NCBI GenBank assembly: GCA_963716775.1
Contig: CAVQUI010000004.1
Coordinates: 288,360 to 352,359, forward strand
Origin: an uncultured delta proteobacterium
GTDB lineage: Bacteria > Myxococcota_A > Polyangia > Polyangiales > Houyiibacteriaceae
Direction of reading: 5' to 3'
DNA: 64,000 bases
Shown here: one piece after another, positions 24,269 through 34,757 of the stretch
Position numbering within the stretch: the stretch's first letter is position 1
How the letters are laid out: each line of letters begins with the position of its first letter
Notes under the pieces: model-generated
Told to the model about the DNA's origin: nothing
The model's input: the letters and a program-made list of their open reading frames with translations, nothing else
Database searches by the model: none
Program-made: the position numbers and the translations under genes

Positions 24269-25339
24269 TCAGCCTTCGACTTGGTCCTCGCTCGGGACGG
24301 ATTTAGGCTCTTCAGGTGGCGGTTGGTAGCGCAGCAAGTCCTCGACCCGTTCGAGCAGTTCGCCTTCGAAGTGCAGCGAAAAGCGCGGCTCGAGCAGCTT
24401 CATTCGAACACGCCAGACGACCGGATCGGCAGGATCTCGCAGAACGACCGGCGTGGCTCCTGCGAGCACCCAGGGCGAGCTCAGAATTGCGTCCGTGAGC
24501 GCCATGCGCACCTTGCCGGCGTTCTCGTAGCCTTCGAGCCGTACCACCACTTCATGCTCAGCGTCGGAGCCGGCGTCGTACACCATCGGCGCACCAACCA
24601 TCGCGCGGTTCGGAACGGTGAGGCGGTGCCCCTGTCCGTCGCGCAGCCAGGTCGCGCGGAGCGTCCTGCCTTCGACCGTCCCCTGAAATCCATCGCCAGA
24701 GACCCACATCCCCTTCTTCACGCGCCGTTCGACGGCGAGAATTGCACCGGCAACCAGGTCGGCGAACAGATCGCGGACCGACCATCCGATGACCAGGGCG
24801 AGAACGGCCAGTGTCCAGAGCATCCAACTCTGGTCGTTTGGGACCAATTCGAAAACAACCGCTAGAAGCAGACAAAACGCTGCGATGCGAAGACCGAACA
24901 CGAGTCCGCCGAGCACGCGCCGCAGCGGAATGTTCGTGGTGATCCAATTGCGGGTGCGCTCGGCCAGGAACAGCAGCAGACCCACGGCAAGCAGCCAGAG
25001 GAATAGGACGAGCAGCGGATCGCGTTCCTGCGTCCTGGGCGACTCCTCGCCGGCGTCGCCGGGGGGCTGCGTCCGAGCGATCGAGCTCGGCGGATTTTGA
25101 GAGGGGCTTTGCGCAGAGGTCTGCTCTTGCTCGAGGGCCGGGCGCTCATCCGTTCGTTTCTTGGCTGGAGCCGGCTTGGCTGCTGTCCTGCTTGTCTTCG
25201 ATTCCGCCCGGGTTTCCTCTCGAGCATCCTGCTGGTTCTGCGATTCGTCGGTCCGGTCGAAAAGCTGCGCCCCAGCGGGAGCCGCGATAGAGGCGATCAG
25301 CAGAAACGACAAGCAAGAGCGTTGGAGCTTCGAAATCAC
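24269..25339 (-). CDS. MscS-family mechanosensitive channel with a long low-complexity periplasmic N-terminus
   Basis: Signal peptide, TM helices and an MscS beta-domain signature (GDGFQGTVEGRTLRATWLRDGQGHRLTVPN). GTG at 25337-25339 overlaps the upstream TGA (GTGA). Confidence 0.8.
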   Translation of the reverse strand: MISKLQRSCLSFLLIASIAAPAGAQLFDRTDESQNQQDAREETRAESKTSRTAAKPAPAKKRTDERPALEQEQTSAQSPSQNPPSSIARTQPPGDAGEESPRTQERDPLLVLFLWLLAVGLLLFLAERTRNWITTNIPLRRVLGGLVFGLRIAAFCLLLAVVFELVPNDQSWMLWTLAVLALVIGWSVRDLFADLVAGAILAVERRVKKGMWVSGDGFQGTVEGRTLRATWLRDGQGHRLTVPNRAMVGAPMVYDAGSDAEHEVVVRLEGYENAGKVRMALTDAILSSPWVLAGATPVVLRDPADPVVWRVRMKLLEPRFSLHFEGELLERVEDLLRYQPPPEEPKSVPSEDQVEG

Positions 25340-28300
25340 AGTACCCAGCCCCGTTCTGCAAATACGCGGCCGAGCACCCCGCGTAGATGTACCGCGATGA
25401 CGAACGCACCTTCGCGCTCCTCCAGCAAACCCAGGTGCGCCAAGCGGCTCAGCTGCGCCTGTGCGGTGTTCACGTCCAGTCTGAACAATCTTGCCTGGCC
25501 GGCGGCGTCTATCCAGCCCCCGCGGGCGATTTGGTAGAGGTTGACCTGGACGTCATCCGGAAGGCGTCGCACCCGTGCGTACGACGAAGCCGGGATCGGT
25601 CCAACATGCACGATGTCGTCCTGGATGCCGCGGATCGAAGCGAGCCAAAGTCGAAGTGAATCGCGCACCAGGCCCCCGGTCGCATCGTGCAGCTCGTGGA
25701 AGTACTGGTCGTACGGCCTTCGAATCCGCGTGGCGCTTCTCGCGAACAAGCCCTCGATCGGTGAGCCATCTCCTCGGTCGAAGGAGTGCTCGAATCCGCT
25801 CAACCGGTGCCGCGCAATGACGGCGGCCTGCAGCTCCTCCTCGCTCAAGGGCTCGAGTCGAACCAGCTCGGGGAATGCATCGCGGAGCGGCGCCACCGTC
25901 GAGGCGAAGTTCCAAAAGAGCACTGCGCCGTGCGCCAGCCAGCGTCGACGCCCGCCCTCCTCGATGATGCCTTTGACGAAACGTCGAAGTGGGTCGAAGC
26001 CACCAGGAGCCATCGAGAGCATCCAGTGGAGCCCGTCCACGACCACCAACTGGCCTTCAGGCGAGTCCTGGAAAATCGCCTCGACGTCTTCCACCGTCAC
26101 CGGTGCGGTGAAGACCACTCGCTTAACGTTCTTCCAGCGGCGGCTTCGCACGATCGCGCTCGAGACGGCCGCCTTTCCGACGCCATCGACTCCGACCAGT
26201 GCGACCGAGCGCAAGCGTCCTTTGATCTCCGTTGAAAGCACAGCCTCTGCGCGGCGGATCTCCTGGTCTCGGCCGGTGAGTACGTCGCCGGCCTCCATCG
26301 TGTCCGCCGCGAACAGACGCCGGTAAACCAGCGGGAGGTTCGTCGCTACGTCCGGCGCGGCAAAGGCGCCTGCAGAGAGCTCCTCGGTCGGAAGGGCTCG
26401 CGTCAAGCCGAGACGCTCACTCCAGCGCTCCAGTCGTTCCTCGCCGAACAAGGCGCGAAGACCACCACGGAGCTGGCCCTTGAGCCGTTTCATCCGGGGG
26501 ACGCGCTCCGCCTTGTTCATGATTCGAAGTCCGCTGGCGGCGCGACGCATCGCCTCGAGACGCGACCTGCTGAAGGAGCCCTCGGCAAGCTCACCCCGGA
26601 GCGTTTCGAGTGTGCCGAGCGCGGCGTCACGCATCTCGCGGTCGATGATCGCCGGCCACCCCTGCGCATCGGCGCGAATCTCTTCGAGCGAATTGTAGCT
26701 TCGCTCGAGCTGGCCGTAGACCATGTCGCGAAGAAGCGTGTGCATCTCTTCGGGGATCGGCTCGTCGTGCACGACCTCGAGCTCAGCAGTCGCTAGCTCG
26801 ACGTTGAATGCCACGACGCGCTCGAGCTCCTGAAGCAGGTTGGCCAGGGGCTGAACACGCTCGGCCAGGTCCTGTCGAGTCGCCAGCAGCTTCGGGGCCA
26901 CACGGCTATCGATGTACGTGAGCACCACCTCTCGGAACGGCACTTCGACCTCGGGGAGCGCGGCAGGCAAGCGCCACTCGCCGGTCTGTCGCTGGCCCAC
27001 GGTCACTCGGTAGCGCGGGGTGAGGGCGCGGCAGGCGTCCACCAAGGCGTCGAGGAGTGGGGCGATCTTCGTGTCGTCGCTCAAGTGGGAGTAGAGCTCC
27101 GAGGTCACTCGCGCCGCTTCGCCTGTGGCCCTGCTCGTCGCCTCAGTCGACTTGCGTAGTGCGGCAGCCAGCTCTTCTCCGGAGTAGTCCGCTTCCAGCT
27201 CTTTGTTCAGCTTCAGCAGCGATTTCTGAAGCGTTTCGCTGACTCGCTCGACTTGAGACGTCGCCCGGCGCTTGACCGTATTGGTGAGCCGAAGAACGTA
27301 CTCGGCGACGTTGTCCTTGATTCGCGCTTCCAGGCCGAGCAGCTCGAGCTCCATAGCCAGCGACGAGTACTCCGCCGAGCTCGCTTTTCGGAGGTTCGAT
27401 ACGTCCTTGGTGAGCGTCTCCATCGCTCGCATGCGATTTGCGAAGCGGCGGCTCGTGCGGCGGTCGCCGGTACGCAAGTCGAGGGTTCCAAAGGTCGGCA
27501 GGTCTTCTTTCATGTGAACGAAACCGGTCGCCAGAGCGCTAGCGGCGCGATGGGTGCCATCTCCGGTGATACGCACCGTTTCGTCGAGCGCCAGAGCGAG
27601 CTCTTCCTCGACGTCGTGCCGAAGCCGAACGAGTTGTCCTTCTAGATCGGAGTCCGGGTTCGCCGAGATGTCTACGATGTCGTCGTAACCGGCGATCACA
27701 CCGTCGAAGAGACTTCGCGTGCGAGCTGCGAGGTGCCGATCAGCTTCGACGAAGAGAGCCGCCAAGGCTTCCAGGCGCGCTGGCGCATCATAGGAAAGAT
27801 GGAAGCGACCTAGAGCACGCAGCCGGACGTCGCGGCTTGGCTCGCTCTGACCAAGGGTCTTGCGCCAGCCCCGTCTCAGTCGAAGCCCGCCCCGCCGGAT
27901 CCGTTTCCAGATCGAATCATCTTCCTTGGTCTGGTAGCTGACGTCTTCGTACGGCGCCGTGACGACCAAGGGAAGCTCGTCGACGAGCCCGTCGACGGTC
28001 TCGAGCATGACCTCCGGCGTCCAGGTGAGCTTGGCGAGCGTAACCGACCTGCCAAGGACGATTCCGCGCCAGTGCGCTGCGAGGTCGGACTGAGCGGAGC
28101 GCAGCATCGTCACCAGCTCATCCCGTTCGGCGCCGTCTTCGGCCCGAGCTTGAACGGTCAAGCGCCGGTGATGGCGTAGAAACTCGCGCCGAAGATCCCG
28201 CAAGTACTTTCCCGCGTCGACTTGGAATTCCCGGAGCGGGCCGGTCGAAACTTCGCGAACGATGCTCTGCAGATCGCCCGCCAGGTCTTGGACGCTACTG

Positions 28301-34014: not shown

Positions 34015-34091
34015 GTCCGCCTAATTGTGAAGAAGAAGCTCCCGGAACGGTAGTTTCGGGCTGGACGGCTGTTTAGCCCATCCGGGCTGCG

Positions 34092-34757
34092 CTAGCGACG
34101 CAGGCCTTCGAGCACGATCGAGATCAGGCTCTTGGTGGTTTCAACTGGATCCAGCGTCACTTGCTTGCGCACCGAAGCAAGCGCCAGAGCCTCGACCGCT
34201 CCGAGGACTGCCAGCGCGCTGACCCGTGGATCGGAAACCGACACGAAATCCCGGTCCGCCGCGACCTGGCTCAGGGTCATGGCCCGCTCGTCGAGCTCGT
34301 TCGCCAAATCGGAGATGGCCTGACGCGCGATCGTCGCCGGAGCTCGGCGCTCCTGGAGATAAAGGCACATCGCATCCGGATACAGGGCGAGGGCACCGAC
34401 TAGCCTATTGCCGAGTTGCCCGTATGCAGCGACCGCTTGTTCACGACCATCCGCCTGGCGCAGTTGGGTGTCGCAATCCTGGATTGCCTCACGTGTGGTG
34501 CTGGCGACCGGAGCAATGACCGCCTCGACCAGATCAGCCTTGTCCCGGAAATAACGGTAGAAATTGCCCTTCGCCATGCCGGCTTCACGAGCGACTTCGT
34601 CGATCGTGACCGCCTCGATTCCTCGCTCCAAAAAGAGCGAAAGCCCGGCATTGATCAGGTCGTCGACGCGCTTGCGCCGGTTGAGATCTCGCTTGCCACC
34701 AAAAGCGCCGGGTCTTTCAACGGGGCCGGCGCGTCTCGGCCTTCTTTCGTCGTCCAT
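34092..34757 (-). CDS. TetR-family transcriptional regulator
   Basis: N-terminal HTH: LINAGLSLFLERGIEAVTIDEVAREAGMAKGNFYRYFRDKADLV. ATG at 34755-34757. Confidence 0.9.
   Translation of the reverse strand: MDDERRPRRAGPVERPGAFGGKRDLNRRKRVDDLINAGLSLFLERGIEAVTIDEVAREAGMAKGNFYRYFRDKADLVEAVIAPVASTTREAIQDCDTQLRQADGREQAVAAYGQLGNRLVGALALYPDAMCLYLQERRAPATIARQAISDLANELDERAMTLSQVAADRDFVSVSDPRVSALAVLGAVEALALASVRKQVTLDPVETTKSLISIVLEGLRR

Follow-up and report, generated by a model that had tools for sequence, protein, structure and literature searches.

Control of K+ and turgor in bacteria is usually pictured as the work of separate uptake, antiporter and safety-valve systems that are linked only through the cytoplasm. 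Potassium uptake by TrkAH depends on a channel that is gated by ATP/ADP binding to the TrkA RCK ring (PMC6987127). Among the K+/H+ antiporters of the CPA2 type, KefC and KefB have a fused RCK domain (PMC10224563), and KhtTU has a separate RCK subunit (PMC11067040). Here, we describe a locus from an uncultured delta proteobacterium of the Polyangiales (Myxococcota_A; GenBank assembly GCA_963716775.1, contig CAVQUI010000004.1) in which genes of these kinds stand together. The whole stretch of DNA that was analyzed has 64,000 nucleotides (nt) and is called the window. On its minus strand a tetR gene is followed by five transport genes, memA, trkA, trkH, BIG and an mscS-like gene. In this text memA is a working name for a membrane protein of 446 amino acids (aa), and BIG is the working name for a CPA fusion protein of 1504/1505 aa. 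An earlier reading by a model, made from the letters alone and called the original prediction below, had seen a dedicated ion-homeostasis module in these genes. We find that the five genes are a selected unit that is conserved across the phylum. Probably they act jointly as an operon for K+/turgor homeostasis, which was assembled stepwise around an older two-gene core.

The locus resembles the described systems in part. As in the Trk systems of V. parahaemolyticus and E. coli (PMC6987127), trkA and trkH are adjacent and translationally coupled in an operon. The operon itself differs, since the trk pair is flanked by two CPA-fold genes and an MscS-like gene lies further downstream. A TrkE/SapD-type component was not identified here, and in other lineages the core cluster does without the trk pair. 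The E. coli trkA-mscL arrangement, with a mechanosensitive channel gene directly after trkA, provides a partial precedent. With KefC/KefB and KhtTU the locus has in common the CPA2 fold and a presumed role in K+ efflux. The likeness to KhtTU extends to the adjacency of the genes, with a separate RCK gene (trkA) directly downstream of an RCK-less CPA2 gene (memA). In contrast to these antiporters, memA and BIG have neither an RCK domain nor the canonical acidic pair, and the adjacent RCK protein differs from that of KhtTU in being a full TrkA with its own TrkH.

The eukaryotic transporters SOS1 of plants and SLC9C1 of sperm have tails that hold cyclic-nucleotide-binding-like domains, plus a voltage sensor in SLC9C1. 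Like these proteins, BIG consists of a CPA domain followed by 600-1,000 largely helical cytoplasmic residues with a nucleotide-binding-type module at the end. Its tail differs in that it carries an AAA+/winged-helix module, and no homology between the tails was detected by Pfam, profile or Foldseek searches. The three-domain end of BIG, composed of base, lid and winged helix, is similar to RuvB, Orc1/Cdc6, the STAND proteins (NLR/CED-4) and PAB2304, and the Walker A lysine is present in the source lineage. Unlike in these proteins, the Walker motifs of BIG are not conserved, and the module ends a 630-residue arm on a membrane transporter. The MscS-like protein shares with the MscS family a beta-domain that is preceded by three hydrophobic helices. 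It differs as a member of a small divergent subfamily with a signal-peptide-like N-terminus and a systematic pairing with the arm-ATPase module. The parts thus belong to known families (Trk, CPA2, MscS, AAA+, TetR), but the component family of BIG itself is undescribed. A literature search and searches of Pfam, NCBIfam and PADLOC yielded no description of the five-gene arrangement, of the CPA2-arm-ATPase fusion or of the arm-ATPase/MscS-like pairing.

Conservation of the five-gene order

The gene order was sought in other genomes, as the original prediction had proposed. Together with the tight junctions it was present in 58 loci from about 50 species-level metagenome-assembled genomes (MAGs) that are labelled Myxococcales, Polyangiales or Sandaracinaceae. 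In these close loci the identity amounted to 90-99% for TrkA, 79-97% end to end for BIG, 77-96% for memA and 55-89% for the MscS-like protein. Relatives of BIG that align end to end were found in at least 43 of 301 genomes scanned across the phylum, in several families. Among 20 distant loci that were fetched (24-50% BIG identity), the order memA-trkA-trkH-BIG-mscS recurs in distant Myxococcota families. The junction between memA and trkA was the most constant one, with -4 to +4 nt in 17/17 distant loci, and the trkH/BIG junction in the distant loci was mostly in the range of -13 to +3 nt. The five genes also occurred in the same order in 3/3 arbitrarily picked distant representatives, which had been taken from the lower part of a search of 1.84 billion proteins. 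The arrangement is thus kept in close relatives and in distant Myxococcota, with a BIG identity down to 24%.

Several loci keep only a part of the unit. Both trkA and trkH are absent from the cluster in the loci L071 and L082, and Bradymonadales-type genomes have memA-BIG-mscS without trk genes. Genome G297 likewise has the memA-BIG-mscS core, and there is no TrkH gene in the genome. Since lineages without trkA and trkH keep memA-BIG-mscS, the antiporter-like pair needs no operon-encoded TrkA. In L076 and L078 trkA is kept between memA and BIG and the operon trkH is lost, with TrkH genes elsewhere in both genomes. The tail of BIG was also found as a stand-alone protein of about 1,000-1,050 aa. 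In L091 and L113 this stand-alone module lies between trkH and an MscS-like gene. In L112 and L114 the module and the MscS-like gene stand as a pair on their own, without trk or CPA genes in the vicinity. In L114 (L114:7001-11409), on a contig labelled Acidobacteriota, the stand-alone protein has 1051 aa, its Walker A (GSGKT) and Walker B (LED) motifs are canonical, and the MscS-like gene follows directly.

In 33/36 independent loci an MscS-like gene comes next after BIG or after the stand-alone module. Because of this adjacency, and because the two also occur as a pair without Trk or CPA genes, the helical arm-ATPase-winged-helix module and the small MscS-like channel are the conserved heart of the cluster. 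The fusion to CPA2 together with its paralogue memA, then trkAH and finally TetR seem to have come later. The dedicated module of the original prediction therefore holds as far as the five genes are a selected unit. Its heart, however, is the cytoplasmic module of BIG together with the MscS-like protein and not TrkA with the antiporters.

A further observation concerns genome G049, which contains two paralogous clusters (L094 and L095). One has the genes memA-BIG-mscS and the other trkA-trkH-BIG-mscS, and in the latter the CPA domain of BIG is barely recognizable (E 2e-9).

These loci bear on the role of TrkA. According to one alternative, TrkA is a shared regulator that gates TrkH and also supplies the RCK domain to memA and BIG, so that a single nucleotide sensor would switch reciprocally between uptake and efflux. 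The lack of an RCK domain in both CPA-like proteins, which the original prediction had pointed out, was confirmed by Pfam scans, in which neither memA nor BIG matched TrkA_N or TrkA_C. The constancy of the memA/trkA junction and the retention of trkA in L076 and L078, where trkH has left the operon, would fit with a shared TrkA. Precedents are the separate RCK subunit of the KhtTU K+/H+ antiporter (PMC11067040) and the RCK domains that are fused to the Kef antiporters (PMC10224563). However, many lineages have memA-BIG-mscS without trkA, and in G297 the core occurs in a genome that lacks TrkH altogether. The genomes of L076 and L078 hold TrkH elsewhere, so that TrkA retains its normal partner there, and NCBIfam identifies the operon TrkA as an ordinary TrkA of full length. 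TrkA could serve the antiporters, but the findings do not require this, and we consider a shared TrkA unlikely.

Gene borders and junctions in the window

Six open reading frames, tetR, memA, trkA, trkH, BIG and mscS-like, lie on the minus strand. Their coordinates, the 77-nt gap after tetR and the ATGA, GTGA, TGATG and GTGA overlaps that follow agree with the original prediction when read from the sequence, and the letters of each junction were read directly. The memA gene (32674-34014) encodes a CPA2-fold membrane protein of 446 aa without a soluble domain. The ATG of trkA (31337-32677, 446 aa) overlaps the memA stop codon, and this junction, AAATGAAC, is an ATGA overlap. The trkH gene (29850-31340, 496 aa) starts with a GTG that overlaps the trkA stop codon (junction CGAGTGAGC, GTGA), and the matches of relatives begin at the same GTG. 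At the junction between trkH and BIG, CGTTGATGACC, the letters are TTGATG/TGATG, with a GGAGG 5 nt upstream of the ATG. The BIG gene extends from 25336 to 29850/29853. The ATG at 29850 is the likelier start, because the GGAGG precedes it. It gives 1504 aa, which is the length of the database homologues. The last gene, mscS-like (24269-25339, 356 aa), begins with a GTG that overlaps the stop codon of BIG (junction CTGTGATTT, GTGA).

The overlaps are real, but they had been taken as a sign of a special coupling. Overlaps of 4 nt are frequent in the source genome, and the polyprenyl synthase operon next to the unit contains one at 22099-22102. Since overlapping junctions are that common, the overlaps alone are no more than a habit of this genome.

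memA and the CPA domain of BIG

The memA protein had no match in Pfam or NCBIfam, even at E 10. A family profile built from 21 orthologues matched human and bison NHA2 at E 7e-5, and the alignment covers the DD motif. With the memA family hidden Markov model the CPA domains of BIG proteins were matched at E 1e-28 to 1e-8. The AF2 model of memA reached a predicted local distance difference test score (pLDDT) of 83 and a predicted template modelling score of 0.84. A Foldseek search with this model returned NHA2, NapA, PaNhaP and MjNhaP1 (E 3e-8 to 1e-7, TM-score 0.59-0.73), and SOS1 and SLC9C1 were also among the structural matches. By the AF2 model, its Foldseek matches and the profile match to NHA2, memA has the NhaA-type fold, which is characterized by crossed, unwound helices TM4 and TM11 (TM, transmembrane helix). 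The memA protein is thus a divergent CPA2-fold protein that is paralogous to the N-terminus of BIG. Hence, the earlier label of a CPA antiporter is sound for memA with respect to the fold, by profile and structure and not by any Pfam or NCBIfam match, and the antiport itself is putative.

Residues 1-25 of memA form a signal-peptide-like stretch (…LPGVAHA/AS) in the source family, which is absent from many distant orthologues. Such a start is unusual for a polytopic transporter. The stretch may be the extra N-terminal helix of NHA2-type CPA proteins. The M. xanthus protein Q1D5P4 (432 aa, TC 2.A.37.6.1), described as a 'novel CPA2 subfamily' (PMC3924187), is a possible relative of memA.

The N-terminal CPA2 domain of BIG comprises about residues 50-465 (28459-29850, minus strand). 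It matched Na_H_Exchanger (PF00999) over residues 60-451 (E 1.9e-21, 76.8 bits, cut-off 26.2). Apart from TM5, where K231-D232 stands instead of the acidic pair, the core is well kept, with the SPAAT motif of the unwound helix, the FFxxAGA motif and the invariant residues R378 and E460. A phmmer search of PDB sequences with the CPA domain of BIG alone gave no match. An unusual BIG protein of 1817 aa was found at L109:4754-10207. There, about 190 residues of CarboxypepD_reg/beta-sandwich-like repeats split the two halves of the CPA domain, and the five-gene order is unchanged.

Acidic residues of TM5 in memA and BIG

In CPA proteins TM5 holds the ion-binding pair, which is DD in electrogenic members and ND or QD in electroneutral members. 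At the position where NHA2 has D-D, memA has G205-D206. The source genus and most lineages combine G/S-D in memA with K-D in BIG. In L083-L086 the memA protein has D-E or E-E and BIG has N-N, and in the Bradymonadales type memA has S-S and similar residues and BIG has A/G-D. Considering BIG by itself, TM5 reads K-D in most lineages and N-N in L083-L087, and neither residue is present in L088-L090. In nearly all lineages a carboxylate is kept in at least one of the two partners. It thus seems that memA and BIG have the carboxylates split between them, in a way that is complementary across lineages. CPA transporters are dimers, and split carboxylates would be expected if memA and BIG acted jointly, for instance in a heterodimer. 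We regard this complementarity as a lead and not as a result. Because the acidic pair is absent from both proteins, their exchange activity can only be inferred.

The carboxylates have to be considered together with a second alternative, namely that the operon serves co-regulation only. The five proteins would be independent of each other and would be expressed jointly under osmotic or ionic stress. The tail of BIG would autoregulate its own transporter, as in SOS1 and SLC9C1, and would be unconnected to both memA and the MscS-like channel. CPA transporters with large cytoplasmic regulatory domains are indeed known, and the finding of SOS1 and SLC9C1 with the memA model speaks for this idea. 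The same is true for the habitual overlaps in the source genome, and functionally related transporters that do not interact are often clustered. However, the tail also occurs without a CPA domain and yet beside an MscS-like gene, and therefore it cannot be only a CPA autoregulator. In addition, the complementary loss and retention of carboxylates would be hard to explain if memA and BIG were independent. Co-regulation as the sole link between the five proteins thus seems rather improbable to us.

The cytoplasmic module of BIG

Scans of Pfam and NCBIfam with residues 462-1505 of BIG returned no usable match, and the arm had no Pfam match below E 0.07. An AF2 model of residues 470-1505 (25 orthologues) had a mean pLDDT of 84. 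In this model the arm (about residues 515-1149, 26407-28311, minus strand) consists of approximately 630 residues of long helices of up to 87 residues each, corresponding to H46-H680 of the 470-1505 fragment. Conservation of BIG is even along the length of the arm. The arm is followed by an alpha/beta P-loop domain as the AAA+-like base, then a helical lid and then a winged helix. These three together span about residues 1175-1500 (25336-26331, minus strand). With the last ~330 residues Foldseek returned RuvB, Orc1/Cdc6, plant NLR/CED-4 and archaeal PAB2304 (E 2e-6 to 1e-4). The base and lid were recognized as an AAA+ fold, with matches to RuvB, Orc1, spastin and NSF at probability 1.0 and E down to 1.8e-6, in a region of the AF2 model with pLDDT > 85. 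Weak matches to AAA_16, AAA_22 and NB-ARC were obtained in relatives. The BIG family profile matched the EutK winged helix at E 2e-6. Reading of the sequence revealed an acidic wing with few basic residues in this winged helix.

The nucleotide-binding motifs of BIG are degenerate. Its Walker A motif, GVDGVGKA (G1221-A1228), contains K1227 and has Ala at the Ser/Thr position, and VVVDGL at the Walker B position (1270-1275) has no Glu. These motifs are not kept across the BIG family, in which the lysine is often Arg or missing and the residue at the acidic position of Walker B varies among D, E, T, K and R. Canonical motifs were seen solely in distant forms of the stand-alone kind. In the alignment of 25 sequences R1348-H1349..S1352-G1353 is invariant, and the stand-alone Acidobacteriota form has Thr at the Ser position. 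With Walker motifs of this kind, the module is probably not a motor but binds a nucleotide or no ligand at all. The AAA+-like domain of the source lineage is therefore probably a nucleotide-binding domain or a purely structural pseudo-ATPase.

A profile search with the AAA+/winged-helix part alone recovered only contig-truncated fragments of the BIG family and no independent short relatives. The family is large, with 3,766 representative clusters at E <= 0.001, and the nearest named genus is 'Sandaracinus sp.', with a homologue of 49% identity. In databases BIG proteins are named 'cation:proton antiporter' or 'KefB' (JGI). BIG does not have the fused C-terminal KTN/RCK domain of Kef proteins, and the name 'KefB' covers the CPA domain, which is a third of the protein.

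The module suggests a third alternative, in which BIG is a sensor or scaffold and not a transporter. The CPA domain would have lost its transport activity and would anchor the protein in the membrane or sense ions. The arm, the STAND/ORC-like pseudo-ATPase and the winged helix would oligomerize or would relay a signal, more likely to other proteins than to DNA. In line with this idea, the canonical acidic pair is absent (K-D, N-N or neither), Walker A and B are degenerate and variable, the structural matches include NLR/CED-4 and Orc1, and the winged helix resembles the EutK domain. On the other hand, the remaining CPA core is well conserved in SPAAT, FFxxAGA, R378 and E460, and the acidic wing with its few basic residues argues against DNA binding. 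A role of BIG as a mere sensor or scaffold has in our view a low probability. It is in any case compatible with the homeostasis operon that we favour rather than opposed to it.

That the ancestral arm-NTPase and MscS-like pore were an anti-phage abortive-infection system, in which a STAND-type sensor opened the pore and whose gene pair the operon inherited, is highly improbable. In its favour, the stand-alone protein of L114 gave weak matches to nSTAND3 (E 1.3e-4), AAA_22 (at threshold) and PADLOC mads_8 (E 1.2e-5). Against it, none of the window's proteins had a match in PADLOC, and in the source lineage the Walker motifs have decayed. The vertical, syntenic inheritance across the phylum, the TrkA-like sequence conservation and the embedding of the sole TrkH are unlike patchy defence islands.

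TrkA, TrkH and the MscS-like protein

The operon TrkA contains two RCK_N + RCK_C units, seen in Pfam as two copies each of TrkA_N (2.5e-47) and TrkA_C (1.1e-24). Against NF007039 it scored 429 bits (cut-off 293, E 2e-128), as an ordinary full-length TrkA. TrkH matched PF02386 with 176 bits (cut-off 27, E 1.1e-51). It was below the equivalog cut-off of NCBIfam (306 versus 866 bits) and below the subfamily cut-off of TIGR00933 (275 versus 331). Thus, TrkH is a member of the family but not at the equivalog level. A scan of the source genome showed that the operon trkH is the sole full-length TrkH gene in the 4.18-Mb assembly. Four conventional CPA genes lie outside the operon in this genome, one of them with a fused RCK domain. 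On another contig (G000:C6:22986-23521) short TrkA_N and TrkH C-terminal matches adjoin each other, in open frames of 133 and 224 aa. This site could be a Ktr-like remnant or a pseudogene.

The MscS-like protein was recognized by MS_channel_2nd (PF00924) at E 1.9e-10, with 41 bits (cut-off 20) over residues 190-249, directly after a hydrophobic segment at 174-196. After its signal-peptide-like N-terminus come a low-complexity stretch of poor conservation, then three hydrophobic helices and finally the beta-domain. Comparison with the NCBIfam models of MscK, MscM and MscS resulted in weak matches far below the cut-offs. By these matches the protein belongs to a small divergent MscS subfamily, for which channel activity is predicted. 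At L110:11551-13304 two MscS genes follow BIG in tandem, the small operon-type gene and one for a canonical MscS, in which the three Pfam domains are all present.

The tetR gene and control regions

The tetR gene (34092-34757, minus strand) encodes a protein of 221 aa with the N-terminal helix-turn-helix domain TetR_N (PF00440, E 5e-17), for which no NCBIfam equivalog reached its cut-off. In loci of the same genus tetR is the gene immediately before memA. Of the 20 distant loci, L073 was the only one with a tetR gene, at 2.6 kb from the cluster. By this distribution tetR would be a genus-specific addition to the cluster. TetR, which the original prediction had placed before the five genes, accompanies them only within the genus and is not a general member of the unit.

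A promoter-like site, TTTACG-16-CATAAT, is located upstream of tetR at 34798-34825 (minus strand), within a 220-bp region that is common with the divergent lipA gene. This site is the sole sigma-70-like match in 24000-35200, and the scan of this region revealed no sigma-70-like sites inside the five transport genes. Both promoter hexamers (CTTTAC ... CCCCATA) are kept in 15 genus-level relatives, with variation in the flanking bases. Terminator-like hairpins in the ~11 kb were at chance level (13 versus 8.4 ± 3.0). Window positions 34798-34879 (minus strand) contain GCGCAATATTTTCG, a promoter-proximal AATATT repeat that is conserved across the genus. The distal repeat GGCGCAATATTC upstream of tetR is conserved much less than the promoter-proximal one.

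The spacer between tetR and memA (34015-34091, minus strand, 77 nt) contains three conserved blocks, CTAAACAnCTGTCCAGC, GAAACTACCG and CTTCTTCTTCACAATT. In an alignment of 15 genus-level relatives these blocks are near-invariant and their surroundings vary. We considered the spacer as an RNA element, but a search of Rfam gave no match and no conserved RNA fold was found. A sigma-70 promoter was likewise rejected, as there is no consensus match. Judged from the conserved blocks, the spacer is a probable control site at the DNA level, either an operator or a non-sigma-70 promoter. Therefore, the five transport genes may have their own transcription start besides read-through from tetR. No clear palindrome that could serve as a TetR operator was present in the conserved blocks upstream of tetR or in the tetR-memA gap.

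The unit is bordered upstream by the divergent lipA gene (34978-35934, plus strand; Radical_SAM and LIAS_N) and downstream by a convergent gene for an FMN-dependent dehydrogenase (22946-24238, plus strand). An open reading frame of 388 aa on the minus strand upstream of tetR (34786-35952) was dismissed as an antisense shadow of lipA, despite tblastn matches of 40-86% identity in relatives.

Discussion

In the picture that we favour, that of a K+/turgor homeostasis operon, the arm-ATPase module would be the cytoplasmic partner or regulator of the MscS-like channel, which it would regulate or onto which it would dock. In Myxococcota a fusion would have joined the module to a CPA2 domain whose partner is memA, probably in a heterodimer. 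The ion-binding carboxylate(s) would be in one protomer and the other would be mainly regulatory. In many lineages trkA-trkH would then have been inserted between memA and BIG, and in the source genus a TetR repressor would have come in upstream for local regulation. A single mRNA would encode the proteins for K+ uptake, K+(Na+)/H+ exchange and solute release, with translational coupling keeping the amounts matched. TrkAH would take up K+ under nucleotide control, memA and BIG would carry out K+(Na+)/H+ exchange, probably jointly, and the MscS-like channel would release solutes. Each specific protein contact within this picture, taken singly, has a rather low probability.

Several points weigh against this picture. 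The functions of all members are read from homology and gene neighbourhood. Within the genus, unrelated flanking genes are also syntenic, and therefore only the distant comparisons carry weight. An MscS-like gene is lacking after BIG in L075, L093 and L098, and the 'Acidobacteriota' assignment of L114, one of the loci with the two-gene pair, is a MAG label. The canonical acidic pair is absent from memA (G-D) as well as from BIG (K-D), a lysine adjoins the aspartate of BIG, and BIG has no carboxylate in some lineages. The complementarity in TM5 rests on four or five independent lineages only. Finally, the subunit symmetries of the parts are known, with CPA dimers, TrkA rings and MscS heptamers. 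As these differ, a single five-protein complex is not expected.

A more explicit version of the homeostasis operon can be formulated. As a novel type of cytoplasmic partner, the arm-ATPase-winged-helix module would directly control the MscS-like channel, in a pairing that would be older than the Myxococcota. In Myxococcota it would be joined to one protomer of an obligate CPA2 heterodimer of memA and BIG, in which one protomer transports, the other regulates and the carboxylates are split between them. A single machine beside TrkAH would thereby couple ion exchange mechanically to the opening of the valve. In this full form the proposal is a speculative one to which we give little credence.

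In summary, a whole phylum keeps uptake, antiporter-like and valve genes in one translationally coupled unit together with an undescribed family of large proteins. If the arm-ATPase truly partners the MscS-like protein, it would be the first protein regulator of an MscS-type channel that is encoded in the same operon. If memA truly pairs with BIG, the two would form the first heteromeric CPA transporter. If the picture is true, a widespread mis-annotation of the BIG family would be corrected.

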